A stretch of DNA of 64,000 bases, from the IMG/VR virus record IMGVR_UViG_3300036823_000160, positions 1 to 64,000 of that record; one strand, 5' to 3'. Within the stretch, counting starts at the first letter, position 1. Every line of letters starts with the position of its first letter. The position numbers and the translations under genes were made by a program. The notes under the pieces were generated by a model. It saw only the letters and a list, made by a program, of their open reading frames with translations, was not told the DNA's origin and did not search any database. Source of the DNA: a virus. Positions 3,809 to 53,543 of this stretch are shown piece by piece.

Positions 3809-3835
3809 GGAAGGACGAGAGCGAGCTCGCGGGTT
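3809..3835 (+). promoter_or_regulatory. ECF-type promoter (GGAAGG-N18-GTT)
   Basis: Member of the 18-copy motif; ATG 8 nt downstream. Confidence 0.6.
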
Positions 3836-3843
3836 CGGACGCG

Positions 3844-5265
3844 ATGACCACGACCATCGCCAGCGACGCGCGCGACGACTACCAGAACATGCTCAACGCC
3901 TTGCGCGACAACTTCGCGGCGCTCACCGGTCCGCTGTTCGAGACTGACGCCGAGGGCTTGTGGAAGGCGTGGCTCGGCGCGCTGCCCGAGTCCGAGCGAC
4001 AGCACCACAACTGCCACGCGTGCCGGCGCTTCATCGAGAAGTACCTCGGCCTCGTGACCATCGACGAGAAGGGGATCGTGCACGTCAGCTTCCCCTGGAT
4101 GTCGAACGACTACGCGCGCTCGTTCATCGCCGCCGCCAAGATCGTGGAGTCCGCACGAGTCACCGGCGTGCACGTGTCCTCGGATAAGATCTACGGGCTG
4201 GCCGCGAACACCGACAAGAAGAACGGCTGCACGCGCCACCACATGCACGTGATCCCGCCGGCGGCGATGATCTTCACGGGCAAGATTCTGAACGCTAGCC
4301 AGCGCGCCGCCGAGCTTCGTGCGGACCGGGCCACGCTCTCGAACGCGCTCGCCGAGTTCAAGTCCGAGACCGTGAAGCAAGCGCTGGCGATCGCCGAGGC
4401 CGAGTCACTCTACCGCGGCGAGAAGATCGAGGACCGGCTCCGGTGGCTCGTGGAGCTCCACGAGCGTCGCGCGGCGACCGCGAACATGCGCACGAAGGAG
4501 AACCTGACGTGGCTCGCGGTGGCGACCGCGCCGGTCGGCTACTGCCACATCAAGTCCTCGGTCGTCGGCTCGCTCCTCGGTGACATCGAGGCTGGCAAGC
4601 CGTTCGCCGAGGTCAAGCGCGCGTTCAACGCGAAGATGCACCCGCTCCAGTACCAGCGCCCGACCGCGCCACCGAGCGAGGGCAACATCAAGCAAGCCGA
4701 GGCGCTCGTCGAGAAGCTCGGGATCGCGCCGTCTCTGCGCCGGCGCTACGCGCGGCTCGAGGACGTGATCGCTCACGCGGTCTGGACGCCGCGCGAGGCC
4801 GAGATCGAGAAGAAGGGTGGCGTGTTCAATCACCTGCGCGACCAGCCCAAGGGCGCGCTCGTGGTCGTGCAAGGGGCGACGATGACGTGGGACAAGTTCG
4901 CACGCACGGTGTTAACCACGGCCGAGCTCGCCGCCGGCACGCGTGTGAAGGTGACCGCGATCGTGCCGATGCCGAACCAGTGGCAGCCTGGGTTCGATCA
5001 CCACGGCAACGGCGTGCTTCTGATCTTGGACGGCTGCCGCGACACGCGCGACGTGGCGCTGTCTCTGTTCCCGGAGTTCCTCAAGAGCGAGCTGCACGCG
5101 GTGCGTTCGACGATCGAGGCGCACTCGCGCAAGGGTGTGATCGAGGGCAAGGAGCAGGCGAGCGCGTGTGGCATTCCGGTGCGCGCGGGTTCGAGCGCCA
5201 ACGTGAGGGTCCGTGTGACCTCGCGCGGCACGTTGACCGACTACACCATCGACCGGTGGGACTAG
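3844..5265 (+). CDS. conserved phage hypothetical protein (HHNCHAC, HPLQYQRP motifs)
   Basis: Long ORF with coding-like composition; start placed by the promoter motif. Confidence 0.8.
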   Translation: MTTTIASDARDDYQNMLNALRDNFAALTGPLFETDAEGLWKAWLGALPESERQHHNCHACRRFIEKYLGLVTIDEKGIVHVSFPWMSNDYARSFIAAAKIVESARVTGVHVSSDKIYGLAANTDKKNGCTRHHMHVIPPAAMIFTGKILNASQRAAELRADRATLSNALAEFKSETVKQALAIAEAESLYRGEKIEDRLRWLVELHERRAATANMRTKENLTWLAVATAPVGYCHIKSSVVGSLLGDIEAGKPFAEVKRAFNAKMHPLQYQRPTAPPSEGNIKQAEALVEKLGIAPSLRRRYARLEDVIAHAVWTPREAEIEKKGGVFNHLRDQPKGALVVVQGATMTWDKFARTVLTTAELAAGTRVKVTAIVPMPNQWQPGFDHHGNGVLLILDGCRDTRDVALSLFPEFLKSELHAVRSTIEAHSRKGVIEGKEQASACGIPVRAGSSANVRVRVTSRGTLTDYTIDRWD

Positions 5266-5274
5266 GTCGCGAGC

Positions 5275-5562
5275 GTGAGCCGGCTCAAGAGTTTGGCGGA
5301 GATCGCGAGGCGCACCGTCCGACGCGAGTACCAACGCAACTGGTTCGCGAACCGGACACCCGAGCAGCGCGAGGCCGACCGCGAGCGCCAACGTAACTGG
5401 TTAGCGAATCGGACGCCCGAGGTTGTGGACGTGCGCACGCACAACCAGGCGGTCGCAAGCGCACGGTTCGAAGGTGTCATGGAGGAGCGCAAGCGGGTCG
5501 CGCGCCTTCCGCACCCCTTCTCTAACGTTCCGAACGCGATCCACTCGCTTGTCGAGCGCTGA
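5275..5562 (+). CDS. hypothetical protein with QRNWxANRTPE repeat
   Basis: Two internal repeats; shares 26 bp exactly with 8883-8908. Confidence 0.55.
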   Translation: MSRLKSLAEIARRTVRREYQRNWFANRTPEQREADRERQRNWLANRTPEVVDVRTHNQAVASARFEGVMEERKRVARLPHPFSNVPNAIHSLVER

Positions 5563-6166
5563 TCGCGGCTGATCGCGCCGTGTTCGGGGGCTTGTCTGAG
5601 TCCTCGCACGCGAGCTCGGCGCTGGTCGAGTCCGCGTTCGCGACGTCGATCACCGACGCGGGCGCGGGTAGCGCCGGCCGCGCAGCGGACTGGAACGCGT
5701 TCGCAAGCCTGGTCACAAGGGCCATATCAGCCATCGACGGCGTGACAGCGCCCCCGTGCGCGTTGTGCATCTGGATCGCCGCCTCGACCTGTACCGATTG
5801 CATGGGCATGCCGTACCCGCGCTGCTCGAGTCGGATCATGGCCTGCGTGCGTTGCTCGAGCGTTGGCAGGATCGACCCCCGTTCATCGATCGTCACCACG
5901 ATCTCGCCGTCCTCGAGCTCGACCAGAATCGGGCTCTTACCAGCTGCGATCGCGAGCTGGAAATCGACGAATAGATCAGGATCGAGACGCTGGCGGATCG
6001 CGAGCGATAGCGACCGCGCCGCGCGCGCCGCGTCCTTAGTCCGCGTCGTTCCCTTGCGCCCCTTGATGAACCGCCCGTTCGAGATGTCCCGGCCCGTGAT
6101 CTCGGTCCCGCCGATGGCCGGCTTAGGCTGGCCGGCCCGGGGGGCCGAGGCAAATAGTGACTCCAT
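5522..6166 (-). CDS. putative terminase small subunit
   Basis: N-terminal GRFIKGRKG and a R..A..L..RGYG.P.Q motif resemble TerS-like proteins. Confidence 0.5.
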   Translation of the reverse strand: MESLFASAPRAGQPKPAIGGTEITGRDISNGRFIKGRKGTTRTKDAARAARSLSLAIRQRLDPDLFVDFQLAIAAGKSPILVELEDGEIVVTIDERGSILPTLEQRTQAMIRLEQRGYGMPMQSVQVEAAIQMHNAHGGAVTPSMADMALVTRLANAFQSAARPALPAPASVIDVANADSTSAELACEDSDKPPNTARSAAISARQASGSRSER

Positions 6167-6169
6167 GTT

Positions 6170-6640: not shown

Positions 6641-6642
6641 GG

Positions 6643-7164: not shown

Positions 7165-7188
7165 GGCTTGATCCTACGCGAGCGCGCC

Positions 7189-7580: not shown

Positions 7581-7592
7581 GACCAGGGATGT

Positions 7593-7609: not shown

Positions 7610-7772
7610 ACGTCGCGCGCGCGTCCAAGCTCGCGGACCTGCGTCACACCTGCGCGTGAAGCGTCGCTTCGTCGCCACACTCGAGGTCGCGAACGTGGTG
7701 CGCGCGATACAGTGGACACCTGGTCATCGCGTGATTGCGCCCTTATTCGAGCACTTGGGACGCGATCGCGAG

Positions 7773-7789
7773 CTGGCGCGGTTCCCGCA
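7773..7789 (+). promoter_or_regulatory. sigma54-like promoter (CTGGCGCGGTTCCCGCA)
   Basis: GG-N10-GC, then TCCCTGGTC and ATG 7802, 14 nt after the C. Confidence 0.55.
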
Positions 7790-7801
7790 AAGTCCCTGGT
7801 C

Positions 7802-10293: not shown

Positions 10294-10305
10294 CTCACTG
10301 GTCAC

Positions 10306-14454: not shown

Positions 14455-14480
14455 AGAAGCGAGGGACTGGGTCAGGGGTT
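14455..14480 (+). promoter_or_regulatory. ECF-type promoter (AGAAGC-N17-GTT)
   Basis: Motif member; GTG 9 nt downstream. Confidence 0.65.
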
Positions 14481-14489
14481 CGCTCTAGG

Positions 14490-16766
14490 GTGTCGAACAA
14501 GAAATCGCGGCCTGAACGGCGCGCCGGCGGTCCCAAGGTCGACGACCGCGAGCCAGTCCTGCGCGTGTACTTCGGAGAGGACGAGATCCACGTCGACCTG
14601 TTCGCTGGCGGTGGTGGCGCGTCGGTCGGCGCCGCGCTCGCGACCGGCCGCTCCCCCGACGTCGCGGTGAACCACTCGCCAGTCGCGATCGCGATGCATC
14701 GCGCAAACCATCCCACGACCCGGCACTACATCGAGGACGTGTACGAGGTCGACCCGCGTGTTGCGACTCGCGGTCGGCAGGTCGCGTTACTTTGGCTATC
14801 CCCGACCTGCACGCACCATTCGAAGGCCAAGGGTGCCGCACTCGTCGACCGCAAGATCCGCGGCTTGTGCTGGTCTGCGTTGCCGTGGATCAAACACTGC
14901 CGCCCGCGCGTGATCATCCTCGAGAACGTCGAGGAATTCGCCAAGTGGGGACCGCTCCATCGCCAGCACACGGACGGGTGCGAAGGCGTGAAGTGTGCCA
15001 AGGGGTGTCGATTCGGCACGATGCCCAAGAACCGTCGTGGCAAGGGTCGCATCAAGCACCACGACAAGGGCTGTCCCGGCGTCGAGTGCTCATCCAGGTG
15101 CCGCATCGATCGCCCAATCAAAGCGCGCGAGGCCGAGACCTTCAACGCGTTCGTCGCGAAGATCCGCTCGAAGGGTTACTCGGTCGAGTGGAAGTTCCTG
15201 CGCGCGTGTGACTACGGGGCGCCCACCACGCGCCGGCGCTTGTACATGGTAATGCGCGCGGACGGCCAGCCCGCGAGTTGGCCCGAGGTCACACACGGCC
15301 CGGGACTCGTGCCCTATCGCACCGCGGCCGAGTGCATCGACTGGTCGATCCCGTGCCCGTCGATCTTCGACCGTGAGCGGGCGCTCGCGGACAAGACGAT
15401 GGCGCGGATCGCGCGCGGCGTCCGCAAGTTCGTGATGGAGAGCGAGCGCCCATTCATCGTGCCGGTGAACCACGGCGGTGTCGGACGTCGCGACCTACGC
15501 GTTCACGATTCGGCCGCGCCGATGCCCACGATCACCGGTGGTCAGCGCGGCGGACACGCGGTCGTGGTGCCGATCGTGACGAAGGCCAAGACCCACGGCG
15601 GCGGCAACGGCGTGCACTCGGGCGCAGAGCCGCTAGGAACCGTGACCGCGTCGAAGCGAGGGGAGTTCGCGCTTGCGTCCGCGACGCTTGTTCGCGCCGG
15701 CGCCACGGGTAATTTCCTCGTGTCCCCGGTCGTGGTCCCGGCCACGCACGGCGACTCGCGCGGCCAGCCTGACTCGCGCACGCACGGTGTCGACGAGCCG
15801 CTCCGCACGATCACGACGCTCGGCGCGCAGTTCTCGATCGCGTCTGCCGTTCTGGTTCGCACTGCTCATGGCGATGTCGACGCGTCCGGTAAGCGACGTG
15901 GTCCCGGCGAGCACACGGTCGAAGCTCCGCTCGGTACCGTGTGCGCCGGCGGCACCGATCACGCGATCGCCGCCGCGTATATGGTCCACCGTTCGAACGG
16001 CGAGCGACCGGGTCAGGCGCCGCGCGTCTACGACGTCGAGGACCCACACCCGACCGTTGTCGCCGAGGGGCTCAAGACCGCTGTGTGCGCAGCGTTCCTC
16101 GCCAAGCACAACGGCGGATCGCACGAGAGCAAGAAGGGCGGCCAGGCGGTCACCGCGCCCGCAGATACGATCTCGGCACAGGATCAGAAAGCGGTCACGG
16201 TCGCGCACCTCGTTCGCTACAACAGCGAGAACTCGGCCGCGTCCGCGCGCGGTCAGAGCGCCGACACGCCGGTCTCGACTCTCGATACCGCGAACCGGGT
16301 CGCGGTCGCGACCTCGCACCTGATGAAGCTCCGCGGCACGAGCCCTGCGCACGTCGCATCAAGTTCGCAAGCGGTGGACGCGCCCGCGCCGACGATCTCG
16401 GCCGAGGGCACGCATGTCGCCGAGGTGCGTGCGTTCCTGGTCCGGTACAACGGGCAGTCCGGCCCGCAGAACGTGGACGCGCCCCTCGGCACGCTCGACG
16501 CGACGGATCGGTATGGGCTCGCGACCGTGGTCATCGGCGGGGAGCTGTACGAAATCGTCGACATCGGGATGCGAATGCTCACGCCGCGCGAGCTGTTCGC
16601 TGCACAGGGGTTCCCTCCCACATACCAGATCGACCCCGTCGGCCCGAAGGGTAAGCGCCTGACCAAGACCGAGCAGATCCGCGCGTGCGGGAACTCGGTG
16701 TGTCCGCCGGTAGCTCGCGCGCTCGTCGAAGCCCAGTTCGCGCCGCAGCGCACCGTGGCTGCGTGA
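14490..16766 (+). CDS. C5-cytosine DNA methyltransferase
   Basis: DLFAGGGG, SPTC, ENVEEF, YGAPTTRRR, RMLTPREL..QGFP, GNSV. Confidence 0.95.
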   Translation: MSNKKSRPERRAGGPKVDDREPVLRVYFGEDEIHVDLFAGGGGASVGAALATGRSPDVAVNHSPVAIAMHRANHPTTRHYIEDVYEVDPRVATRGRQVALLWLSPTCTHHSKAKGAALVDRKIRGLCWSALPWIKHCRPRVIILENVEEFAKWGPLHRQHTDGCEGVKCAKGCRFGTMPKNRRGKGRIKHHDKGCPGVECSSRCRIDRPIKAREAETFNAFVAKIRSKGYSVEWKFLRACDYGAPTTRRRLYMVMRADGQPASWPEVTHGPGLVPYRTAAECIDWSIPCPSIFDRERALADKTMARIARGVRKFVMESERPFIVPVNHGGVGRRDLRVHDSAAPMPTITGGQRGGHAVVVPIVTKAKTHGGGNGVHSGAEPLGTVTASKRGEFALASATLVRAGATGNFLVSPVVVPATHGDSRGQPDSRTHGVDEPLRTITTLGAQFSIASAVLVRTAHGDVDASGKRRGPGEHTVEAPLGTVCAGGTDHAIAAAYMVHRSNGERPGQAPRVYDVEDPHPTVVAEGLKTAVCAAFLAKHNGGSHESKKGGQAVTAPADTISAQDQKAVTVAHLVRYNSENSAASARGQSADTPVSTLDTANRVAVATSHLMKLRGTSPAHVASSSQAVDAPAPTISAEGTHVAEVRAFLVRYNGQSGPQNVDAPLGTLDATDRYGLATVVIGGELYEIVDIGMRMLTPRELFAAQGFPPTYQIDPVGPKGKRLTKTEQIRACGNSVCPPVARALVEAQFAPQRTVAA

Positions 16767-16791
16767 AAGCTCGCGCGCGCCGATCGGGGTT
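16765..16791 (+). promoter_or_regulatory. ECF-type promoter (GAAAGC-N18-GTT)
   Basis: Motif member; overlaps upstream TGA; GTG 9 nt downstream. Confidence 0.7.
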
Positions 16792-16800
16792 CTGAGCCAG

Positions 16801-17149: not shown

Positions 17150-17175
17150 GGAAGTGGCAGTAGCCCGGCGCGGTT
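17150..17175 (+). promoter_or_regulatory. ECF-type promoter variant (GGAAGT-N17-GTT)
   Basis: Intergenic, upstream of the nuclease/primase genes. Confidence 0.5.
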
Positions 17176-17264
17176 CAGGGTCTGGCCCGTGCTCGGAAAC
17201 CGCCGCTCCTTCGTCCGCTCCCCGGACGCGCGCTACGGTGACCGGCTGTGACCAGGGACGACGC

Positions 17265-17915: not shown

Positions 17916-20854
17916 ACGAGATCGCCCACAGCCCAGACATCGGGGCGGCGATGGGGTTCTTGCGCTCCTGGATCCCAGGAGGGCCGTGGAGCCTTGGCGC
18001 GATCGATCCCGATGATCGCCAGGGCCTTGCTTGGATCACTACCGAGAGCGAGGTCGAGGCCGAACGGTTCCTCGTCGAGCAGTCGGCGCTCCGGCGCGGG
18101 ATCTACTACCAGCCGAACGTGTGCCGAGACGACCTCGGTCCACGCCGTGCGAAGAAGGAGCACGTCGCGGTCGCGCTCTGTCTCCACGCCGATGTGGACC
18201 CGCCGGCTGTCGCGTCCGCGGCCGAGCTTGCCGCGTGGCAGGTGACGACGATGGAGCGGCTCGCCGACGGTGAGCACTGGCGCGCGAGCGAGCTTCCGGC
18301 GCCGACCGCGATCGTGTTCTCTGGCTCCGGCTTCCAGCTGCTATGGCGGCTGGCAGAGCCGGTGCTGCTCTGGTCCGACACGAACGGAAGCACGGAGCAA
18401 GACCCCGCGCTCGTCGACTCGGTCGAGGGCCGCTGCTACTCCATCATCCGGCGCGTGGACCCGTCGCACGTTGGGACGCACAACGTCGATCGGCTTCTCC
18501 GTCTGCCAGGGACGCTCAACTGGCCGAACGAGAAGAAGCGCGCGAACGGGCGCACGATCCCGGAGCTCGCGGCGGTCGAGTGGATCGGCAACGACCACAC
18601 GCTCGAAGCGTTCCCGTACGAGCAGCCGCCCGAGTCAGCCGAGGCAGCTCCACGCTCCGAGGGCGCGGCTGCGCTCGCCCGTGAAGGCCGGGTAGCACCG
18701 GCCGCGCTCGCGGCCGCGCTTCCGCCGTGGCTGCACGAGGCTGTGGTCGAGGGTCCCGAGAAGGGCGCAGACCGGAGCAAGGCCGCGTTCGCGGCCATCT
18801 GCGGGCTGATCCGTTGCGTCGACGACGACACGATCGAGGCGATTCTCGGCGACCCTGCATTCGCCGTGAGCGGGCACTTCCTAGATCAAGCTGACGTCGA
18901 GCGAGCGATCGGTCGCGCGATCGATGCCGCGCACCTGGAAGTGGACGTAAAGATTGCACAAGGGCGACGGCTACTGGAGGCCATGCAGCGCGAGCTCGCC
19001 CGGCGCGCGCCGGTCCTCGCGGTCCCGGTCACGCCCCCTCCGGCGCCCTCGCCTCCGCCACTGGTTCTGGAACTCGAGGTCGCGCCTCCGAACCCGCTCG
19101 CGTTCGTGTTGCCCTCGCCGAGCGAGCCCGCGTCCACAGGCGCTCCTTCGATCCCGACGACGATCGAGTTCGAGGCCGCGCTGCGATCCGTTCAACGTCG
19201 CCTGAGTCGCCGTGTGGATCCCGATGCGATCCAGGACGCCGAGTTGCTGAAGCGCGTTCTGGAAGGCGAGTTCCTGACGGCGGCAACGGACGCCGAGGAC
19301 GATCGACAGGGCACGCTAGCGCGCGCCGTGCTCGCAGTCGCGCGCGCGGCTCCTCCGGGGGCGACCTCGGACCAGATCCATCGCCAGCTTCTCGCCAGCT
19401 CAGGAGCACTTGCGTGTGATCTGCCGGAGGTGATCCAAGAGGCTCTCGTGGTCGCCATCGAGCTCGGCCCGATTGGTCTGCCGGTTCGAAAGGAATCCGC
19501 GACCCTCGCGGCGCGCGCGAGCGATCCCGATGATTTCGACATCGAGCTGAGCGGTCCGCGTGCGGGGCGCCCCGCGAGCGCGAACCAGCGCAACGTGCGC
19601 CTCGCACTGCGCAAGCTCGGCGTCGAGCTCCGCTACAACGACTTCGCGCGCCAGGAGGAGATCGTTCGCGGCGGTCGCGTCGATGTCGTCGAAGATCCGC
19701 ACGTGAAGGCGTTGCGCGCTGAGATGGAGTCCGCGCACGACTTCCGTCCCGGCAAGGACGACCTGTTCGACATGTGCGAGGTGATCGCGCGCGAGAATGC
19801 GTATCACCCTATCCGCGACTACCTGGCGTCGCTCCCCGAGGACGCGCCCGCTGGATCGCCCGCGAAGTTGACCGAGCGCTGGCTGATCGACTGTGCCGGC
19901 GCCGAGGACACCCCATATGTGCGCGCGGTCTCGCGCCTCGTGCTGGTCGCCGCGGTGCGGCGCGTGCGCCATCCGGGATGCAAGTTCGATGAGATGCTGG
20001 TCCTGGAGACGCCAATCCAGGGCAAGGACAAGTCCAAGGCTCTCGCCGCGCTCGCGGTTCGCGACGAGTGGTTCACCGACGATTTCAACTTCAAGAACGT
20101 CGACGACACCAAGAAGATGATGGAGACCACGACCGGTCGCTGGATCGTCGAGGCCGGCGAGCTAAAGGGCATGAACGAGGGTCGCTACAACGACCTCAAG
20201 GCGTACCTGTCCCGTCGCAAGGACGCCGCACGCGCCGCGTACGGACGAAAAACCACGACGGTGTTTCGCGAGTTCATCATCATCGGAACGACCAACGAGC
20301 AAAAGTACCTGCTCGATCCCACGGGCAACCGTCGAATCTGGCCGGTTCGTGTGGTGCGCTTCGACGTCCTCGCACTGCTCGCGATGCGCGATCAACTGTG
20401 GGCGGAGGCTTCGCGCCTGGAGCTCGAGCACCCCGAGCCGGAGTATATCCGGCTCGATCCCGAGCTCTATGCGGCGGCGGCCGAACAGCAGGCCGCGCGC
20501 GAGGTCGATGATCCGATCCGCGAACGCCTGGATCGGGTCCTCGCCGACATCACCGGGCGGATCCGTGTCGAGGACGCGTGGAAAATCGTTGGCTACGAAG
20601 ACGAGATCCCAAACCGCAGGGACAGCATGGCGATCTCCTCTGCGATGCAGTCGCTCGGGTTCGCACAGAGGCGAATCACGCAGGCTGGGGATCGTGGGAC
20701 CTGGTACCGCCGCGGCGCGACCGAAGAGGAGCGTGACCAGATCCTCGGCTTGACCGGCGGTGCCGCTGCGGGCTGGCGCGTCGGTCCAAAAGCAGGTGTC
20801 TATGGCGCGCGCCGATCCGGCCCATTGTCCGGTCCTGACCGGCGCGCGAACTAG
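17912..20854 (+). CDS. primase-helicase: RepB-like primase domain plus VapE/VirE P-loop domain
   Basis: LHADVD, SGSGFQLLW, DRLLRLPGT; YHPIRDYL, PGCKFD..LVLE..QGKDKS, IGTTN..YL.DPTGNRR.WP. Confidence 0.9.
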   Translation: MNEIAHSPDIGAAMGFLRSWIPGGPWSLGAIDPDDRQGLAWITTESEVEAERFLVEQSALRRGIYYQPNVCRDDLGPRRAKKEHVAVALCLHADVDPPAVASAAELAAWQVTTMERLADGEHWRASELPAPTAIVFSGSGFQLLWRLAEPVLLWSDTNGSTEQDPALVDSVEGRCYSIIRRVDPSHVGTHNVDRLLRLPGTLNWPNEKKRANGRTIPELAAVEWIGNDHTLEAFPYEQPPESAEAAPRSEGAAALAREGRVAPAALAAALPPWLHEAVVEGPEKGADRSKAAFAAICGLIRCVDDDTIEAILGDPAFAVSGHFLDQADVERAIGRAIDAAHLEVDVKIAQGRRLLEAMQRELARRAPVLAVPVTPPPAPSPPPLVLELEVAPPNPLAFVLPSPSEPASTGAPSIPTTIEFEAALRSVQRRLSRRVDPDAIQDAELLKRVLEGEFLTAATDAEDDRQGTLARAVLAVARAAPPGATSDQIHRQLLASSGALACDLPEVIQEALVVAIELGPIGLPVRKESATLAARASDPDDFDIELSGPRAGRPASANQRNVRLALRKLGVELRYNDFARQEEIVRGGRVDVVEDPHVKALRAEMESAHDFRPGKDDLFDMCEVIARENAYHPIRDYLASLPEDAPAGSPAKLTERWLIDCAGAEDTPYVRAVSRLVLVAAVRRVRHPGCKFDEMLVLETPIQGKDKSKALAALAVRDEWFTDDFNFKNVDDTKKMMETTTGRWIVEAGELKGMNEGRYNDLKAYLSRRKDAARAAYGRKTTTVFREFIIIGTTNEQKYLLDPTGNRRIWPVRVVRFDVLALLAMRDQLWAEASRLELEHPEPEYIRLDPELYAAAAEQQAAREVDDPIRERLDRVLADITGRIRVEDAWKIVGYEDEIPNRRDSMAISSAMQSLGFAQRRITQAGDRGTWYRRGATEEERDQILGLTGGAAAGWRVGPKAGVYGARRSGPLSGPDRRAN

Positions 20855-20879
20855 GAAGCGCCGGTTCGAGCGGCAGGTT
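20854..20879 (+). promoter_or_regulatory. ECF-type promoter (GGAAGC-N17-GTT)
   Basis: Motif member; ATG 8 nt downstream. Confidence 0.65.
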
Positions 20880-20887
20880 CGGGTTCC

Positions 20888-26255: not shown

Positions 26256-26279
26256 AAGCGACCACGCGAGCTCCGGGTT
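26254..26279 (+). promoter_or_regulatory. ECF-type promoter (GAAAGC-N17-GTT)
   Basis: Motif member; followed by a leader with AGGAG. Confidence 0.7.
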
Positions 26280-26315
26280 CTGGTCTCGCTCTCAACGAGC
26301 AGGAGAACGAAGAAC

Positions 26316-33244: not shown

Positions 33245-33270
33245 GAAAGCGCAAGAACGAGTTCGCGGTT
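33245..33270 (+). promoter_or_regulatory. ECF-type promoter (GAAAGC-N17-GTT)
   Basis: ATG 9 nt downstream. Confidence 0.7.
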
Positions 33271-33279
33271 GCGGGCCGC

Positions 33280-33819: not shown

Positions 33820-34316
33820 TCCTCGTCAGGCTCGCCGCCGCCGCCGCGTTCGCGATCCTGATCGCACTCGCCGCCCCTTTCCCGTCGCCGACAGCGGACC
33901 GCGTTCGTGCGCTGCCCGACACGGCGCTCACGAGCGAGGCGGCGGACGAGAACGTCGCCGCGGCGCGGATCGCGGGCATGCTCACGGGTGAGCGGCCCGA
34001 GATCCTGCTCGCGCTCGCATGGCACGAGTCGCGCTTCATCTCGAACGCGGTCTCACGGGAGGCGAACGGCCTGGTTAGCTGCGGAATCGCGACCCCAGAA
34101 CCACAGGCCAAGTGCGAGGACGAGCCGCTCGTGATCCAGTACCAGCGCGGCGCCGAGCACCTCGCGGGCTGGCGGCGCGCACTCGGCGATCGAGCGCTGT
34201 TTGGATACGCGGGTGGGTACCGACTCAACAAGGCGTGCCTCGCCGGCTCGACGGTGCGCGGGTGCACTTTCCCGGCGTGGATGGAGTCGCTCGCGAACCG
34301 GATCGCGGGTCTCTGA
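33816..34316 (+). CDS. secreted lytic transglycosylase (SLT)-like protein
   Basis: Signal peptide; LLALAWHESRF catalytic-Glu motif; SCGI; ALFGYAGG. Confidence 0.6.
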   Translation: MILVRLAAAAAFAILIALAAPFPSPTADRVRALPDTALTSEAADENVAAARIAGMLTGERPEILLALAWHESRFISNAVSREANGLVSCGIATPEPQAKCEDEPLVIQYQRGAEHLAGWRRALGDRALFGYAGGYRLNKACLAGSTVRGCTFPAWMESLANRIAGL

Positions 34317-34342
34317 AAAGCGGACCTGTCAGCGCGCGGGTT
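34316..34342 (+). promoter_or_regulatory. ECF-type promoter (AAAAGC-N18-GTT)
   Basis: ATG 10 nt downstream. Confidence 0.6.
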
Positions 34343-34352
34343 CGGGTGCTCG

Positions 34353-34586: not shown

Positions 34587-34858
34587 AGTCCAAGCTATCG
34601 AAGTCACAGGTTCGCAAACAGGCCGTGTTCATCTGCCAGACCGCGGCGATTAACCCCGTAGCATACCACGGCGAGTTCTACGACCGTGTCGTCGATACGT
34701 TTGGGCTCTCCAAGCCAGCTCGGCACCTCGCGGTCGCGGCTTGGGTTGCCGTCGTACACGGGAGTTCTTGGACGATCGAGACCGACGGCGAGGCGGCGGC
34801 CTTGCTCGCTACCGGATGGTCGCCCGGGGTAGCGATTAAGCGGAGGCGTAGCGAGTGA
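34583..34858 (+). CDS. hypothetical protein
   Basis: GGAGG SD; GTGA overlap. Confidence 0.6.
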   Translation: MKSKLSKSQVRKQAVFICQTAAINPVAYHGEFYDRVVDTFGLSKPARHLAVAAWVAVVHGSSWTIETDGEAAALLATGWSPGVAIKRRRSE

Positions 34859-34882
34859 ACGCGGTCGTCCCACTCCGGGGTT
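34857..34882 (+). promoter_or_regulatory. ECF-type promoter variant (GAACGC-N17-GTT)
   Basis: ATG 10 nt downstream. Confidence 0.55.
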
Positions 34883-34892
34883 CGACCGTTCG

Positions 34893-37675: not shown

Positions 37676-38025
37676 GCCAGCGCGGCGCCGTGTTCACGAT
37701 CTCGGTCCGGCTCGACGACGAGTCGCCGGACACCGCGACGCGGTTCGCGACCTGCGACAAGTGCGGTCAGGAGCTGACCGCGGCGATGCACGATCCCGTG
37801 TCGGTGATCAGTATCCCGAACCTGGAGAGAATGGTGGCTCGGGAACCAGCACGCGTCGTCGCGATCAGGAAGCTGGTCGACACCGCGTTCGAGCGGGCGC
37901 GCTCGACCCGGATGCCGATCGTTATCGACAGTGCGTACGAGGTCCGGCAACTCAACTCCGCCGGGCTCATGCAGGAAATCCTGCGCGAGCACGCGGTGAA
38001 GTGCTCGGTCCCCGTCGCGGGTTGA
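37672..38025 (+). CDS. hypothetical protein
   Basis: Coupled start. Confidence 0.6.
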   Translation: MSQRGAVFTISVRLDDESPDTATRFATCDKCGQELTAAMHDPVSVISIPNLERMVAREPARVVAIRKLVDTAFERARSTRMPIVIDSAYEVRQLNSAGLMQEILREHAVKCSVPVAG

Positions 38026-38762: not shown

Positions 38763-38789
38763 GAAAGCGCTGGCCCGCGCCCTGGGGTT
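38763..38789 (+). promoter_or_regulatory. ECF-type promoter (GAAAGC-N18-GTT)
   Basis: GTG 38799 is 9 nt downstream. Confidence 0.7.
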
Positions 38790-38798
38790 CACGTGCTC

Positions 38799-40948: not shown

Positions 40949-40975
40949 GAAAGCCGCCGGCGGCGGGGACGGGTT
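40949..40975 (+). promoter_or_regulatory. ECF-type promoter (GAAAGC-N18-GTT)
   Basis: ATG 40985 is 9 nt downstream. Confidence 0.7.
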
Positions 40976-40984
40976 CGAGCGAGC

Positions 40985-41239
40985 ATGGGTGAATTGAACT
41001 TCGTCGTGTTCGTCGGTGCGCACGGCACCGGCAAGATCTGGCTCGCGAATTACGTCCAGTCCGAGTTCGTGGACATCATCGATGACTGGGACCCGGTGCT
41101 CGAGCTTCGCAATCCACGGACACGGACGCCCGGACACAGGGTGGTCGCGTGCACGAATGTGCCGATCTCGATGTGGCCGACCGATATCTACGAACGCGTC
41201 CGCGCGCAAGGCAAGATCTACGTCGTGGCCGAGGTCTGA
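40985..41239 (+). CDS. miniature P-loop protein
   Basis: GAHGTGK, IIDD and ACTN within 84 aa. Confidence 0.55.
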   Translation: MGELNFVVFVGAHGTGKIWLANYVQSEFVDIIDDWDPVLELRNPRTRTPGHRVVACTNVPISMWPTDIYERVRAQGKIYVVAEV

Positions 41240-41263
41240 AAGCACACCTGCCACACGCGGGTT
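41238..41263 (+). promoter_or_regulatory. ECF-type promoter (GAAAGC-N17-GTT)
   Basis: Followed by a leader with AGGAG. Confidence 0.7.
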
Positions 41264-41293
41264 CTCGCTCCTGAATCAACCAGGAGCAGGATC

Positions 41294-41635
41294 ATGAGTT
41301 GGAGCGTGTACGCGACCGGGCCCAAGGCCACGGTCATCGAATCGATCACCAATAACTTCGACACTCAGGCCGCGAACTACACCGGCGAGCGCGAGCGGGA
41401 GGGCAAGGACATCCTCGCCTGCAAGGAGCGCGTGCTCGCGTTGATCGAGGACCTCGACCTCGAGCCGAACGAGTACTCGCCCCAGGGCTACGAGGTCGCC
41501 ATCTCGTGCCACGGCTCGCACTCGACGTCGTACACGCACAAGGGGCCGAACGACCCCGCGGACTCGAGCAAGCTGATGAGCGCGAGCTTCAACTGCGCGG
41601 TCGCGCGCAAGGCGATCCCACTCGTCGCCGACTGA
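41294..41635 (+). CDS. hypothetical protein
   Basis: SD AGGAG; MSWSV start. Confidence 0.7.
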   Translation: MSWSVYATGPKATVIESITNNFDTQAANYTGEREREGKDILACKERVLALIEDLDLEPNEYSPQGYEVAISCHGSHSTSYTHKGPNDPADSSKLMSASFNCAVARKAIPLVAD

Positions 41636-41660
41636 AAGCGCGCGGGTACGCGAGCGGGTT
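41634..41660 (+). promoter_or_regulatory. ECF-type promoter (GAAAGC-N18-GTT)
   Basis: ATG 8 nt downstream. Confidence 0.7.
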
Positions 41661-41668
41661 CGGTCGCG

Positions 41669-43576: not shown

Positions 43577-43602
43577 GAAAGCTCGCGAACCATCTCGGGG
43601 TT
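43577..43602 (+). promoter_or_regulatory. ECF-type promoter (GAAAGC-N17-GTT)
   Basis: ATG 12 nt downstream. Confidence 0.65.
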
Positions 43603-43614
43603 TTGCACCTCCGC

Positions 43615-45772: not shown

Positions 45773-45990
45773 TGTTCGGCGCAGCCTTGTTCCCAGGATC
45801 CCATTCTAGGCCCACGGTCTCGCTCGAGGACCTCGACACGCCCGCGACCGACGGTGAGATCCGCGTCGAGACCGACGAAGGGCTTAGCAAGCGCGTGCTC
45901 TACGTCGCCGATCCCACGAACGAGATCCACACCGCGTACGGGCGCCAGCTCGACGAGGTCGCCGAGCGCCAGTTACACGACGCGGCCTGA
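45772..45990 (+). CDS. hypothetical protein
   Basis: TGATG coupling. Confidence 0.55.
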   Translation: MFGAALFPGSHSRPTVSLEDLDTPATDGEIRVETDEGLSKRVLYVADPTNEIHTAYGRQLDEVAERQLHDAA

Positions 45991-46015
45991 AAGCGACCGT
46001 CGCCTCGTGCGGGTT
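45989..46015 (+). promoter_or_regulatory. ECF-type promoter (GAAAGC-N18-GTT)
   Basis: ATG 46026 is 10 nt downstream. Confidence 0.7.
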
Positions 46016-46025
46016 CATGGCCGCT

Positions 46026-48863: not shown

Positions 48864-48883
48864 GCCGCGTTACGCCGCTTTTT
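48862..48883 (+). terminator. possible intrinsic terminator at the convergent junction
   Basis: AAGC(C)GCG-TTA-CGC(C)GCTT hairpin running into a T tract. Confidence 0.35.
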
Positions 48884-50324
48884 CGTCCGCAACGTCGCCC
48901 GAGGTTGCGTCCGCGCCGCGATACCCGTACTCGGTACGAGCGAACTTCGCCAGCACGGGCGCGAGTGCCATCCGCGCGCGCGCCAGCCGCGTGTGGACCG
49001 TGTTCTTGGGGATGCCGAGGTCGCGCGCGATCTCCTCGCAGCCCTGGCCCCAGGCGTAGAAGCGCTTCACCACCTCGCGCTTGTCGTGGTCGAGCTCAGC
49101 GATCGCGGCGAGCACCTCGTCCCCGAACGGCTCCTTGTCGTCGACGCGCACCGGCTGCGTGACCGCGACGATGTCCGGCGATCGCGATTCACCAGCGTCC
49201 TGGTACTGGATCGCGAGCGCGGTATCGGTGCCGTGGGCAGCCGCGACCAGGTCCTCCCGCCGTTCGCGCGCGGCTCGGCGTCGCACGTTCCGGTGGTGGT
49301 ACGTCTTCACGAATGTGTTGCAGACGATGCGGTACATCCATCCGCGCGCGGCGGCGATGGGGTCACCTTCGGGCACCCAGCGCGGCCACGCGCGGAAAGC
49401 CTTCGCGAACGCGTCCTGGACGACGTCCGCGGCTCGATCGGCGTCGCCATCACAGAGTCGTCGCGCGTAGGCGACGAGGTCCGGGCGCAGTGGTAGCACC
49501 AGCGTCTCGAAAGAGGGCGCGGCCGGCTCGACAAGCGCGCGGTCACCGAACTCGGCTGCGACCGCGGCCAGCATCGCCGCCGGCATCGCCGTAAGTCCGA
49601 CGGCGCGCACGACCTCACCTGGCTCGAACACGCCGCCGCGGGTCGCAAGCCCCCACACGCGCGCCAGGTCGTTGCCGGACAGTTCGGCTAGGATCGCGGG
49701 GTCGTCGTCGCGAAACCGCGCCTCGACCTCGCGTCGCGTCGCGATCCCGGTCGCGACCTGCAGCTCGACGAGAGACGCCAGAAACGTGCGGGTTTCGCAG
49801 GACGCCGCCGCGCCCGCGCGCTCGATCCCGTCGCGAACCGTCGGCCACGCGTCGCCGGCGACCAGCCGCTCGACGCCGATGACCGCGATCGCGTCCGAGA
49901 TCCAGAGTCGCCCGCTCGCTAGGCCGCGCGCCATCAGGCAGGCGGCGAGTTCGCGGTTCGCGACGAGGAACGTCGGGTCCGTGATCAGAGCGCGAGCGTG
50001 TCGCGTCAGATCCAGAATGCCGGCTTCGGCCTCCGCGGCGAGCGCGCGCGTGAGCCAGTCATCAGCCCCCGACGTTCGTGACCAGGCGTTTGCTGGTCGC
50101 TCGTCCGGCGCGTCCTCGACGGCCGGCTCGGCGGTGAGCTCGTTCAGCGGAGCGAGCTCGGGGAGTGAGGGCTGCGAGAGGATGACCGGCCGTGACGGGA
50201 CCGGTGGTAGAATTTCGTTCAGGGACGACGCAAGCGACGGGACAATGTGCAGCATGGACCTCCAGACGCTCGCCCACCGGCGTGCGTCAGGACCAGTCAT
50301 CCCATACGGGAGTTCACTGGTCAA
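48870..50324 (-). CDS. ECF-type RNA polymerase sigma factor with about 270-aa N-terminal extension (start uncertain)
   Basis: Region 2: L..YARRL..D...AADVVQDAF.KA..W..RI..N. Region 4: EEIARDLGIPKNTVHTRLARAR. Confidence 0.9.
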   Translation of the reverse strand: MTSELPYGMTGPDARRWASVWRSMLHIVPSLASSLNEILPPVPSRPVILSQPSLPELAPLNELTAEPAVEDAPDERPANAWSRTSGADDWLTRALAAEAEAGILDLTRHARALITDPTFLVANRELAACLMARGLASGRLWISDAIAVIGVERLVAGDAWPTVRDGIERAGAAASCETRTFLASLVELQVATGIATRREVEARFRDDDPAILAELSGNDLARVWGLATRGGVFEPGEVVRAVGLTAMPAAMLAAVAAEFGDRALVEPAAPSFETLVLPLRPDLVAYARRLCDGDADRAADVVQDAFAKAFRAWPRWVPEGDPIAAARGWMYRIVCNTFVKTYHHRNVRRRAARERREDLVAAAHGTDTALAIQYQDAGESRSPDIVAVTQPVRVDDKEPFGDEVLAAIAELDHDKREVVKRFYAWGQGCEEIARDLGIPKNTVHTRLARARMALAPVLAKFARTEYGYRGADATSGDVADEKAA

Positions 50325-50345
50325 CCCGAATTGTGACCAGTGAAC
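50312..50345. promoter_or_regulatory. perfect 12-bp inverted repeat GTTCACTGGTCA-N10-TGACCAGTGAAC at the sigma gene start
   Basis: Read directly; each arm contains the recurrent CTGGTCA box. Confidence 0.7.
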
Positions 50346-50384
50346 GACCGAATCGTCACGATGGGGGGATCTCCTAGAACGAGA

Positions 50385-52069: not shown

Positions 52070-52078
52070 CGCATCCCG

Positions 52079-52104
52079 AACCCGATGAGGGTGGTCGCGC
52101 TTTC
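52079..52104 (-). promoter_or_regulatory. ECF-type promoter (GAAAGC-N17-GTT)
   Basis: ATG 52069 is 9 nt downstream. Confidence 0.7.
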
Positions 52105-52114
52105 GCTGGCGCGA

Positions 52115-53506
52115 TCAGGCCGCGACCTGGCGCACGCCGACGGTGTTGCGCTGGATCCGACCGTGAACGCGATGGATCACGTCGCACTTCATGTCCTGGC
52201 CTGAACGGTACCCCTTGCTCGCGTGCCAGCCGTCCTTCGGTGCGAGCGTGCGGAGGGTCTCGACTATGACGCCCGGGAACTCCTTGAGCGAGTCGTGGTG
52301 TACGTGGCCGGTGTAGAAGTAGCGGAACTCGGTCTCGCCCCAGTCCTGTTTGCGATCGCAAGCCATGACCGCCGGTAGCTCCGTAGGCTTGCACGTGTCG
52401 CCGTGTGTGACGCCGATCAGGTTCGCGCCAAAGCGAAGCCAGTGGAACTTCGCGGGCGACGGGTCGATCGTCACGCGCGGCTCGCGCTCGTAGTACTGCT
52501 CGAGGCAGAGCGCGAGCATCACGCTCGCGTGCGTGTCGTGGTTCCCGATCTCGCAGATCACGCGCACGCTCTCGTGCTTCTCGAGCGCACGATCGATGCA
52601 CCGACGCATCGCGCGGATCCCGACGCGTAGCAGTTTCGCCCAGCGTGTGTCCGTGTCCACCCGCGTCCCCGCGGTCGTGGTCCCGAACATGTTATCTACG
52701 TGGAAGAAGTCGCCCAGGTTGATGATCAGTGCCTGCTTGGCTGCAGGTGCCGACGCGACGAGTGCATCAACGGCCGCGCACAGGTTGTGCTCGGCGATCG
52801 TGAGGTCGAAGTCCTCGCCGGTCTCCTTCCCCCACGCCATCATGCCGAGGTGCGGATCGCCCATCGGGTAGACGCACAGCAGGTCCTCATCGAGCGGCGG
52901 GCTCGGGGGCGAGGCAGGCTCGGCCACGCTCTGCCAGGCGTCCGCGATCCCTGCCATGGCCGCGAGCAGCGCCGCGATTGCGGCCTGCTCCTCGGACTTG
53001 GTCTTGACCCACTGCCCGATCGCGCGCGACTCGCCGGTGTCGGGGTCGATCTTGTAGTACGTCGAGGTGCCCTTGACCAAGAAGCCTTCGGGCGTCGACT
53101 TCGTCATGTCGTGCGCGGGCGAGTATCCGCGTGTCGCCGCGCGTCGCCGCAGCTCGGAGAGATGCGCGCGAACCTGCGTCGGCGTCAGGCCGAGCTCGAG
53201 GGCCGCGTCCACCACCGAGCAAAGGCGGCTGGTGGTCTCGGCGCACGCGCGCTCCATCTCGCCGCCGAACGAGAACAGGGCCTCGCCTCCGGCGGCGATC
53301 GCGGAGACCAGCACTTCATCGTGCTCGACGCGCGACGTGTTCGGGAAGCGCTCGGCGCGATAACCGCGTAGGTATTTGCGCTCGCACTCGCGGCAGCTGT
53401 TTCGCCAACCGCCATCGGCGCGCTTCCGATAGTGTTCGATATCGAGCAGCAGGTCCTGCTCGCACTTCGAACACCGCTTGTGGTCCGGGATCGGAATTTC
53501 CGCCAT
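52115..53506 (-). CDS. calcineurin-like metallophosphoesterase with N-terminal Zn finger and HTH-like segment
   Basis: GDPHLG, LGDFFH, GNHD, HGD, GHVHH; CSKC..CREC. Confidence 0.9.
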   Translation of the reverse strand: MAEIPIPDHKRCSKCEQDLLLDIEHYRKRADGGWRNSCRECERKYLRGYRAERFPNTSRVEHDEVLVSAIAAGGEALFSFGGEMERACAETTSRLCSVVDAALELGLTPTQVRAHLSELRRRAATRGYSPAHDMTKSTPEGFLVKGTSTYYKIDPDTGESRAIGQWVKTKSEEQAAIAALLAAMAGIADAWQSVAEPASPPSPPLDEDLLCVYPMGDPHLGMMAWGKETGEDFDLTIAEHNLCAAVDALVASAPAAKQALIINLGDFFHVDNMFGTTTAGTRVDTDTRWAKLLRVGIRAMRRCIDRALEKHESVRVICEIGNHDTHASVMLALCLEQYYEREPRVTIDPSPAKFHWLRFGANLIGVTHGDTCKPTELPAVMACDRKQDWGETEFRYFYTGHVHHDSLKEFPGVIVETLRTLAPKDGWHASKGYRSGQDMKCDVIHRVHGRIQRNTVGVRQVAA

Positions 53507-53517
53507 CAGGTCGTCCG

Positions 53518-53543
53518 AACCCGTAACACCTCCGGGACCTTCC
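53518..53543 (-). promoter_or_regulatory. ECF-type promoter (GGAAGG-N17-GTT)
   Basis: ATG 53506 is 11 nt downstream. Confidence 0.6.

Follow-up and report, generated by a model that had tools for sequence, protein, structure and literature searches.

The first 64,000 bases (positions 1–64000, hereafter the window) of the complete 77.5-kb IMG/VR genome of an uncultured, high-GC soil phage contain 18 copies of a promoter-like motif formed by two boxes, GAAAGC and GGGTTC, with 15–16 bases between them (Table 1). We consider it fairly probable that these sites constitute one phage-specific promoter class, read by the host core RNA polymerase carrying the ECF sigma factor encoded by the phage. The array itself, which the original prediction called a regulon, is confirmed, as all 18 sites align at their coordinates and strands. 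The interpretation offered with it is partly supported: from the available sequences we infer which sigma factor reads the sites and the "middle" timing of the class.

Table 1. Motif copies, the sigma gene and the adjacent palindrome. Gaps are counted from the end of the −10 box.
Feature	Position	Strand	Start codon	Gene served or remark
GGAAGG-N16-GGGTTC	3809..3836	+	ATG 3844 after 7 nt	phrog_1735 protein
AGAAGC-N15-GGGTTC	14455..14481	+	GTG 14490 after 8 nt	C5 cytosine DNA methyltransferase
GAAAGC-N16-GGGTTC	16765..16792	+	GTG 16801 after 8 nt	TGA of methyltransferase gene overlaps −35
GGAAGT-N15-CGGTTC	17150..17176	+	GTG 17189 after 12 nt	20-codon ORF; next gene 17265, before primase
GGAAGC-N15-AGGTTC	20854..20880	+	ATG 20888 after 7 nt	TAG of primase gene overlaps −35
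GAAAGC-N15-GGGTTC	26254..26280	+	ATG 26316	35-nt leader with AGGAG
GAAAGC-N15-CGGTTC	30224..30250	+	GTG 30259 after 8 nt	PolA exonuclease half
GAAAGC-N15-CGGTTG	33245..33271	+	ATG 33280 after 8 nt	
AAAAGC-N16-GGGTTC	34316..34343	+	ATG 34353 after 9 nt	
GAACGC-N15-GGGTTC	34857..34883	+	ATG 34893 after 9 nt	beta-helix protein
GAAAGC-N16-GGGTTC	38763..38790	+	GTG 38799 after 8 nt	
GAAAGC-N16-GGGTTC	40949..40976	+	ATG 40985 after 8 nt	
GAAAGC-N15-GGGTTC	41238..41264	+	ATG 41294	29-nt leader with AGGAG
GAAAGC-N16-GGGTTC	41634..41661	+	ATG 41669 after 7 nt	unit has N4/N6 DNA methyltransferase
GAAAGC-N15-GGGTTT	43577..43603	+	ATG 43615 after 11 nt	unit has glycosyltransferase-like and phrog_4786 genes
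GAAAGC-N16-GGGTTC	45989..46016	+	ATG 46026 after 9 nt	RNase T/DEDD exonuclease
GAAAGC-N15-GGGTTC	52078..52104	−	ATG 52069 after 8 nt	dATP/dGTP diphosphohydrolase-like protein
GGAAGG-N15-GGGTTC	53517..53543	−	ATG 53506 after 10 nt	metallophosphoesterase
TGAAGT-N16-GGGTTG	37997..38024	+	ATG 38033 after 8 nt	weak extra candidate
GGACGC-N15-CGGTTC	7758..7784	+	ATG 7802 after 17 nt	weak extra candidate; ATG immediately preceded by CCCTGGTC
Sigma gene	48870..50255	−		461 aa; sole sigma gene of the phage
TTCACTGGTCA-N10-TGACCAGTGAA	50313..50344			palindrome between endolysin and sigma genes; pair of copies of the second recurrent box

The −35 hexamer is exactly GAAAGC in 11 sites, as had been claimed; its fifth base is G in 18 of 18 sites and its second base is A in 13. 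The GGTT of the −10 box, said to be invariant, is indeed present in 18/18 sites, with the longer variants GGGTT in 14 and GGTTC in 16. The spacer between the hexamers is 15 bases in 11 sites and 16 in seven, equal to the N17/18 of the original prediction when counted to GTT, and its sequence is not conserved. Every site (18/18) is co-directional with the gene downstream. The description of the array as genome-wide is too broad: the plus arm has 15 sites within 14.4–46 kb, and the other three are found at 3.8 kb (one) and on the minus arm at 52–53.5 kb (two). In the structural module no more than a single weak copy is seen, at genome position 67384, outside the window.

Enrichment was assessed against 50 dinucleotide-type shuffles. 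The pattern GAAAGC.{15,19}GGTT occurs 11 times, compared to 0.24 ± 0.47 in the shuffles, and G[AG]A[AC]G[CGT].{16,17}GGTT 19 times, compared to 2.4. Enrichment is strong for these stricter forms, whereas the loosest form of the original pattern is enriched only weakly (27 vs. 16.8). Among hexamers in the 45-nt stretches before genes called independently of the motif, the top two are GGGTTC (14 observed, 2.0 expected) and GAAAGC (nine observed, 0.71 expected). The density of the strict pattern is 16.8 per 100 kb in the phage, as against 2.9 in unrelated natural DNA (577 kb).

By annotation, the genes served belong mostly to DNA metabolism, in agreement with the claimed gene content: the C5 methyltransferase, the VapE-type primase operon, the split PolA, the DEDD exonuclease and the N4/N6 methyltransferase, as well as the metallophosphoesterase and the dNTP diphosphohydrolase-like protein. 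The tight spacing reported between the motif and the start codons is reproduced, the latter lying 7–11 nt past GGGTTC in 15 of the 18 sites (7 nt in three sites, 8 in seven, 9 in three, 10 and 11 in one each, with the corrected start, ATG 3844, for site 3809), compared to 15% of arbitrary GGTTC sites. This spacing agrees with the statement that no space is left for a Shine–Dalgarno sequence between the −10 box and the start codon. Two of the three exceptions, sites 26254 and 41238, have AGGAG leaders, again as predicted, and at the third, site 17150, the next real gene is 88 nt away. The GTG start of the PolA exonuclease half is verified by its orthologue, which aligns from residue 1. At about eight sites, the number given originally for TGA, the −35 box shares bases with the stop codon of the upstream called gene; if any stop triplet is considered, the overlap is seen at 11 sites.

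If the G of GTT is numbered −12, as in the solved ECF holoenzyme complexes, +1 would fall 10 nt past the last T. In the modal case the predicted +1 is then the first base of ATG or GTG; in most others it deviates by at most 1–2 nt. Each unit would therefore have its first gene translated from a leaderless or near-leaderless mRNA, the transcription start point at the start codon being what we infer from the spacing. The downstream genes in the units would be translated via overlapping stop and start codons (ATGA, GTGA) or from their own Shine–Dalgarno sequences.

The signal to be explained is bipartite, with two conserved hexamers and a non-conserved spacer of fixed length, strongly enriched and co-oriented with genes. 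Under the favoured explanation, the −35 element G(A/G)AAGC would be contacted by region 4 of the phage sigma factor, and the GTT core of the −10 box GGGTTC by its region 2. About 16 promoters, one approximately every 2 kb, would re-initiate transcription along the DNA-metabolism arm at 14–49 kb, the −35 box of many of them overlying the preceding stop codon. Both sigma-70-type promoters and intrinsic terminators occur in the phage at the chance level, with no terminators detectable on the 14–49 kb arm, and no T7-type RNA polymerase was detected in the phage.

The sigma gene was originally placed at 48870–50324. Its ECF-type assignment stands, but the start at TTG 50324 does not: ATG 50255, preceded by GGAGG, is better supported and yields the same protein as the public gene call P0001. 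In the protein, regions 2 and 4, joined by a linker of about 55 aa, follow an N-terminal extension of some 245 aa with no recognisable family. The only Pfam domains are regions 2 and 4, and the TIGR02937 score is 64.9 bits (cut-off 42.9). The best matches among solved structures are SigH, SigL and SigE of M. tuberculosis; however, the protein scores 55.9 bits with the SigH subfamily model and 61 bits with that of SigE, far below the curated cut-offs of 251.6 and 141.6, respectively. A tblastn search of the sigma factor against 50,697 phage records produced no match. No ZAS-type anti-sigma gene adjoins the sigma gene.

No copy of the motif stands immediately before the sigma gene. Instead, a palindrome of a second, unrelated recurrent box (CTGGTCA) is situated there; copies of this box face either way and also pair as palindromes, in the manner of an operator. 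The palindrome is a probable operator controlling sigma expression, and it probably governs the first expression of the gene. The endolysin and sigma genes lie downstream of the diphosphohydrolase-like gene and are co-directional with it. The two minus-arm promoters, which point towards the metallophosphoesterase, the endolysin and the sigma gene from upstream, could provide positive feedback to the last of these.

The specificity of ECF factors provides another line of evidence. In the published ECF code, the residue at RpoE position 171 sets base −31 (Arg, C; Met, T; Tyr, G), residues 172, 168 and 169 set base −34, and Asn84 sets G at −12. The −35 recognition helix of the phage sigma factor is N-T-V-H-T-R, compared to G-T-V-M/R-S-R in SigH and SigE. 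The changes fall on residues of the RpoE code, and therefore the changed residues are the −31 and −34 determinants; these are the two positions where the phage motif departs from GGAA(T/C), with G at −31 in all 18 sites and A or G at −34. Asn84 is retained, and base −12 is G in 18/18 sites. A 135-kb relative, G001, which shares 46 proteins with this phage (62% identity in TerL), has one orthologous sigma factor of 244 aa, about 40% identical over the sigma domain, with Phe at position 171 and a motif also featuring G at −31. By extrapolation from the Tyr result, His or Phe at 171 may pair with this G.

The G001 motif, G(G/A)AAG(C/A)-N17/18-GTT(C/T), is nearly identical to that of the window and forms 20 sites (3.0 expected), about 12 of them with a start codon 8–11 nt past the −10 hexamer. 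The sites precede seven orthologues, as genes or operons, that have promoters in our phage: the C5 methyltransferase, the primase, the gene after the primase, the PolA exonuclease half, the metallophosphoesterase, and the orthologues of 34353 and 43603. The sigma factor has about 30 further relatives; this comparison of sigma and motif conservation covers two phages.

An alternative, to which we assign a rather low probability, is that a host stress ECF factor of the SigH/SigR/SigE type reads the promoters, either for the whole of the infection or as its initial trigger, while the phage sigma factor has other targets or merely reinforces the host one. The geometry of the motif and the GTT of the −10 box are the same as in SigH/SigE promoters. 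In M. tuberculosis, SigH accepts changes at positions 2, 5 and 6 of the −35 hexamer (PMC4803200), which includes G at −31 and a varied second base, and in C. glutamicum it reads a GGAAGA-N17-GTT promoter (PMC10012870); a host SigH-like factor could therefore read many of the sites. Moreover, the sigma gene stands behind two motif promoters, so the circuit could be started by a host factor. The lack of the supposed own promoter directly upstream of the sigma gene also speaks against the favoured explanation. On the other hand, with the CTGGTCA box being operator-like, no other repeated bipartite promoter-like motif is left for the phage sigma factor; the invariant −31 G and the prevailing A at the second base fit its changed helix; and sigma and motif are retained together in G001.

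It is far less plausible that the motif is not a promoter at all but a binding site of a phage regulator or an RNA-level signal for processing or translation. Such a signal would also keep a fixed short distance to start codons, and the lineage does have another box associated with start codons, CTGGTCA here and CCTGGAC in G001. However, two boxes separated by a non-conserved 15/16-nt spacer in strict orientation are a hallmark of sigma recognition, both boxes fit the ECF −35 and −10 consensus positions, and GGGTTC is not complementary to the usual anti-Shine–Dalgarno sequence. A common RNA element was considered as well and rejected, the sites having no common RNA fold (z-scores about 0).

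The likeness to SigR/SigH-type promoters noted originally is borne out: G(A/G)AAG-N18/19-GTT fits the architecture GGAAN-N18-19-GTT of the actinobacterial SigH (Mycobacterium, Corynebacterium), SigR (Streptomyces) and SigE promoters (PMC10012870, PMC4803200), sharing the GTT core, the distance of 18–19 nt from GGAAN to GTT, and AA in the −35 box. Experimentally mapped SigH/SigE promoters are GGAAT-N18-19-GTT and GGAAC-N17-18-cGTT (PMC10012870), as well as GGAAYR-N17-GTT (PMC4803200). The phage motif differs in having G, not T or C, at −31 and mostly A at the second base, and the recognition helix, NTVHTR instead of GTV(M/R)SR, differs as well. Leaderless SigH transcripts of M. tuberculosis are a minority, three of the mapped starts (PMC4803200), whereas in the phage this arrangement is predicted to be the rule.

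Among phages, gp36 of coliphage phiEco32 and its counterparts in relatives SU10 and Salmonella phage 7-11 are ECF-family sigma factors acting at middle/late promoters (PMC4281155, PMC4331800). In both systems a phage sigma factor of the ECF family would redirect the host core polymerase to its own promoters, at middle (DNA-metabolism) or later genes, and the sigma gene itself is located downstream of such promoters. At the same time, gp36 has no detectable sequence relationship to the present sigma factor, which carries the long N-terminal extension. The phiEco32 promoters have a single −10-proximal motif, tAATGTATAtA, in only 3 + 3 copies and with leaders, unlike the −35/−10 pair observed here in 18–20 copies set against start codons. 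In our phage we identified no counterpart of phiEco32's RNA-polymerase-binding protein.

A similar replacement of the host sigma factor, switching on a temporal class of genes with its own consensus, is performed by gp28 of Bacillus phage SPO1 and gp55 of T4, which belong to different sigma lineages, have a different promoter architecture and produce mRNAs with leaders. The phage described here would be a clear-cut, though not unprecedented, example of host RNA polymerase being re-aimed by a phage and of messages made without leaders.

The 18 listed sites of the promoter-like element were all found in the sequence. They are described by the consensus t-G-(A/g)-A-A-G-C, 15 or 16 non-conserved bases, (c/g)-G-G-G-T-T-C. 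As predicted, GAAAGC is exact in 11 sites and GGTT is present in 18 of 18; the first box has an invariant G at its fifth position. The -35 box includes the stop codon of the upstream gene at about eight sites, which had also been noticed earlier. The pattern GAAAGC.{15,19}GGTT occurs 11 times versus 0.24 in shuffled sequences, and a looser pattern 19 times versus 2.4. The predicted enrichment thus holds for the core patterns, but the loosest expression proposed initially is barely above chance (27 versus 16.8), and therefore the strength of the signal resides in the core sites. In a blind ranking, GGGTTC takes the first place and GAAAGC the second among the hexamers within 45 nt before the starts of our own gene calls. 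The strict pattern reaches 16.8 copies per 100 kb here; unrelated bacterial and metagenomic sequences totalling 577 kb have 2.9 per 100 kb. Every site is co-directional with the downstream gene. The description of the sites as genome-wide proved too broad, as 15 of them are situated at 14.4–46 kb and, of the other three, two are at 52–53.5 kb and one is at 3.8 kb; weaker candidates are listed in the table. Such an arrangement, with two conserved boxes strictly oriented and a spacer constrained in length but not in sequence, is the hallmark of sigma-dependent promoters, and the assignment of these sites to a promoter class is well supported.

At 15 sites the start codon lies 7–11 nt past the end of GGGTTC, with the mode of 8 (seven sites), whereas after arbitrary GGTTC sites the next ATG or GTG falls within 7–11 nt in 15% of cases. 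With such distances from the -10 hexamer there is indeed no room for a Shine-Dalgarno sequence before the start codon in 15 of 18 sites. The three exceptions are as originally described: two have AGGAG-containing leaders of 29 and 35 nt, and the third is site 17150, followed by a 20-codon ORF and located 88 nt from the next gene. This ORF begins 12 nt past the -10 box, ahead of the gene at 17265; it may represent a leaderless upstream ORF, unless the site simply has a long leader. The assignment of the PolA-exo start is supported, because the orthologous proteins of this phage and of G001, a related 135.7-kb IMG/VR phage contig, align from residue 1; in both phages this gene starts 8–10 nt past the -10 box. 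The ECF numbering of Todor et al. places the G contacted by Asn84 of RpoE at -12, with the start at +1 or -1 relative to the flipped -10 base. By this numbering, G of GTT would be -12 and the last T would be -10 in our sites. At the seven modal sites (8-nt gap) nine bases lie between this T and the start codon, therefore +1 would be the first base (A or G) of the start codon itself; at the other eight tightly spaced sites the geometry would place +1 within 1–3 nt of it. It is from this geometry that we infer that transcription would begin on the start codon, yielding leaderless mRNAs. The leaderless geometry as such is well supported.

The ORF 48870–50324 was correctly recognized as an ECF-type sigma factor, scoring 64.9 bits with TIGR02937 (sigma70-ECF) against the cut-off of 42.9. 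As to its start, ATG at 50255, preceded by GGAGG, is better supported than TTG at 50324; the product is then 461 aa long, in agreement with the public gene call. The only Pfam sigma domains are Sigma70_r2 (residues 276–340) and Sigma70_r4_2 (403–454), with no match to region 3 in the linker of about 55 aa, so that the protein has the region 2 plus region 4 composition of ECF (group 4) factors. It matches phrog_1740, "RNA polymerase sigma factor", and its best solved relatives are SigH, SigL and SigE of M. tuberculosis, while none of the curated ECF subfamily models is passed. The N-terminal extension (residues 1–245 or so) has no Pfam match, no usable ESM Atlas match and no recognisable family or fold. 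An exhaustive HMMER search of 1.84 billion representative sequences yielded 33 relatives at E<=1e-30, the best being 56% identical. Nearly all of them are 220–310 aa long and lack the extension. The extension is shared, from residue 136 onwards, by a metagenomic relative of 459 aa (P0004) and is thus a genuine domain, not an error of annotation. The family was not found in any cultured phage. A tblastn search of 50,697 phage records with the sigma as the query was negative at E 1e-5; when a typical family member was used, the only matches were weak ones to uncultured gut phages (22–35% identity within the aligned part).

Upstream, the sigma gene is flanked by a GH25/PG_binding_1 endolysin gene, and at its other end by a convergent gene without a Pfam match that was earlier taken for RuvC. 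Anti-sigma domains were not detected in the proteins scanned, and no anti-sigma gene adjoins the sigma gene, an adjacency that is usual, although not universal, in ECFs. The N-terminal extension might take over the anti-sigma role.

The original prediction paired one phage sigma with a repeated motif before DNA-metabolism units; the phage has one sigma gene and 18 sites, and the pairing recurs in G001. The latter encodes exactly one sigma, a protein of 244 aa with about 40% identity in the sigma domain, its gene being likewise at the end of the structural arm. It also has 20 sites G(G/A)AAG(C/A)-N17/18-GTT(C/T) versus 3.0 in shuffles, almost all of them intergenic, and in about 12 the start codon is 8–11 nt past the -10 hexamer. 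Both phages have sites before seven orthologous genes or operons, namely those of C5 methyltransferase, primase, the gene after primase, PolA-exo, metallophosphoesterase, and the 34353 and 43603 orthologs. With protein identities of 33–62%, unconstrained intergenic DNA would have lost the sites.

The specificity residues are consistent with the phage sigma as the reader of the motif. The recognition helix is N-T-V-H-T-R in the phage sigma, G-T-V-M-S-R in SigH and G-T-V-R-S-R in SigE. In the published ECF code, RpoE position 171 sets base -31 (Arg for C, Met for T, Tyr for G), and position 172 together with 168/169 sets base -34; the Met of SigH was independently assigned to -31/-30 (PMC10012870). 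The phage motif differs from GGAA(T/C) at exactly -31 and -34. The G001 sigma has Phe at position 171, and its motif has G at -31. Asn84 is kept in the phage sigma, and the motif has G at -12. His and Phe, however, do not appear to be among the residues tested in that study.

Taken together, we consider it probable that the phage sigma reads the motif sites. No second sigma gene was found in the record, sigma-70 consensus promoters and intrinsic terminators are at the chance level in the 58 kb of the window scanned, and a T7-type RNA polymerase (PF00940) has no match in the record, the control genomes being uninformative for this model. The main competitor is a SigH-like ECF of the host, which we regard as rather unlikely, though not negligible. 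The specificity of SigH is relaxed: GGAAN is accepted, a GGAAGA-N17-GTT promoter of C. glutamicum being one example (PMC10012870), and in M. tuberculosis the factor tolerates changes at the second, fifth and sixth positions (PMC4803200). If the host is actinobacterial, a SigH-like factor released from its anti-sigma by stress might fire these promoters, at least initially. Further, the 129 nt directly upstream of the sigma gene contain solely a palindrome of an unrelated box (CTGGTCA, considered below) and GGAGG, with no copy of the motif. On the other hand, this operator-like box gives the phage sigma no alternative target. As for autoregulation, the sigma gene has two co-directional sites of this class upstream, at distances of 1.8 and 3.3 kb, with no terminator detected in between. 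Thus a host-triggered, phage-amplified circuit, fed by two sites upstream of an operon ending in the sigma gene, is conceivable.

That the motif is not a promoter at all seems very improbable. A hairpin, terminator or processing site was considered in this respect, and the folding of 12 sites gave z-scores around zero, no better than shuffles; an RNA signal of this kind is unlikely because the folded sites share no structure.

The second recurrent box, (C)CTGGTCA or its reverse complement TGACCAG, occurs 35 times in the window versus 6.4 in shuffles, and the longer form CACTGGTCA eight times versus 0.5. It is often intergenic and directly abuts the start codon (CTGGTCATG, or TGACCA followed by GTG). 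A perfect palindrome, TTCACTGGTCA-N10-TGACCAGTGAA, precedes the sigma gene, and an analogous one, GTCCAG-N10-CTGGAC, precedes the sigma gene of G001. Since both orientations and palindromes occur, the box resembles an operator, or a signal associated with starts, more than a promoter. In G001 the respective box is CCTGGAC/GTCCAGG, with 135 copies versus about 20 expected; 29 versus 2.9 are directly before a start codon, and GTCCAG-N6-14-CTGGAC pairs number 16 versus 0.2. Examples are found in the regions of L015:14008 and L016:8017, among the G001 loci L011–L017. As these pairs often bracket the -10 box of ECF-type promoters, the arrangement in G001 suggests a regulator sitting over the -10/start region.

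One may tentatively, and with more doubt than confidence, combine these observations. The phage sigma would then belong to a mostly metagenomic, uncharacterised ECF-like clade of about 33 members with the helix NTV(F/H)TR, an evolved G(-31) specificity and no anti-sigma partner, having here gained a 245-aa N-terminal control domain. The phages of this lineage would use it for a near-wholly leaderless middle transcriptome, and the second box, bound by a separate regulator, would gate the sigma and the late genes.

The window covers bases 1–64000 of a record of 77,536 nt, which is rated 100% complete in IMG/VR and comes from soil metagenomes; the G+C content of the window is 63–72%, and our gene call based on codon statistics gives 112 genes. 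The layout is shown in the table.

Coordinates of candidate sites, recurrent elements and genome parts of the phage
Feature	Coordinates	Strand	Content or remark
Weaker motif candidates	37997, 7758		in window
Weaker motif candidate	67384		outside window
Second box	1752–17255 and 50296–61074	both	recurrent motif in window
Second-box palindrome	50313–50344		perfect, before sigma
20-codon ORF	17189–17251		after site 17150
+ arm	1–48863	+	helicase, large terminase, C5 DNA methyltransferase, VapE-type primase, split family-A polymerase; further N4/N6 methyltransferase, DEDD exonuclease, many small ORFs
Exonuclease ORF	30259–31728		half of split family-A polymerase
Polymerase ORF	31966–33243		half of split family-A polymerase
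Large proteins	21534–23528, 24306–26255, 3853–5265		function unrecognised
arm	48870–77424	-	sigma, GH25 endolysin, dNTP diphosphohydrolase-like gene, metallophosphoesterase, structural genes, nine tRNAs
dNTP diphosphohydrolase-like ORF	51341–52069	-	weak PF18909 match
tRNA cluster	75961–77533 of genome (L018:15961–17533)		Glu, Ser x2, Arg, Cys, Gln, Thr, Ala, His; phage right end, outside window

An 83-aa ORF separates the two polymerase halves, which are likewise separate orthologs in G001. The PF18909 match (25.6 bits, below the cut-off of 27) is to the dATP/dGTP diphosphohydrolase N-terminal domain, as in MazZ of Z-genome phages; however, a diaminopurine genome is not indicated, because no PurZ-like adenylosuccinate synthetase was found in the whole record. 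No solved-structure relatives were found for the three large proteins. Shine-Dalgarno-like hexamers are outside the top 25 enriched upstream hexamers in the whole record; in G001 they dominate the list. Many genes overlap the preceding stop codon (GTGA or ATGA), which suggests that translational coupling is heavily used in this phage.

At the DNA level, megablast of 8 kb of the window against 50,697 deposited phage records gave no match, nor did tblastn of the endolysin against cultured and deposited phages. The relatives of TerL, capsid and primase are at most about 35% identical over the aligned segments and come from phages of many unrelated host phyla, so no host can be assigned. A single-sequence search of IMG/VR with the sigma gave no match; with the sigma alignment, G001 was the single relative, sharing 46 proteins with the present phage (TerL is 62% identical), and three further contigs carry an unrelated sigma without the motif. 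Scans of genome and metagenome contigs yielded ECFs with at most about 31% identity over the domain, none with the motif upstream; the best one is from a Polyangiaceae MAG (30% over the domain).

Redirection of the host polymerase by a phage sigma is a textbook strategy, and phage sigmas with their own promoter class are already well known; the value of this case is in the detail rather than in the principle. It provides a testable pair, an orphan ECF-type sigma and about 18–20 probable cognate promoters with almost no sequence ambiguity, that could be used as an orthogonal sigma/promoter pair for high-GC hosts. It is also a natural test of the published residue-to-base code, with His or Phe at the position setting -31, and would be an example of a virus making most of a gene class as leaderless messages. 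The transcription plan of an uncultured phage is here readable from sequence alone.

In geometry, the motif G(A/G)AAG-N18/19-GTT is the same as GGAAT-N18-19-GTT of SigH/SigR and GGAAC-N17-18-cGTT of SigE (PMC10012870), and like GGAAYR-N17-GTT of M. tuberculosis SigH (PMC4803200). The proposed SigH/SigR-type shape is thus borne out in the GTT spacing (GTT in 18 of 18; 18 nt from the pentamer to GTT in 11 sites and 19 in seven), but not in the GGAA(T/C) core, as -31 is G in all 18 sites and the second base is A in 13; G at -31 or an altered second base is tolerated by SigH without being its consensus (PMC10012870, PMC4803200). A sigma gene is carried by about 14% of sequenced phages (bioRxiv 10.1101/2021.11.12.468384). 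In phiEco32, SU10 and 7-11, the promoters read by an ECF-family sigma, three of them middle and three late, share a single AT-rich motif 6–8 nt upstream of the start (PMC4281155, PMC4331800). Unlike phiEco32, the present phage has a canonical two-box ECF promoter in 18–20 copies, systematically set against start codons, and a sigma with an N-terminal extension, unrelated to the characterised phage sigmas, gp36 included.
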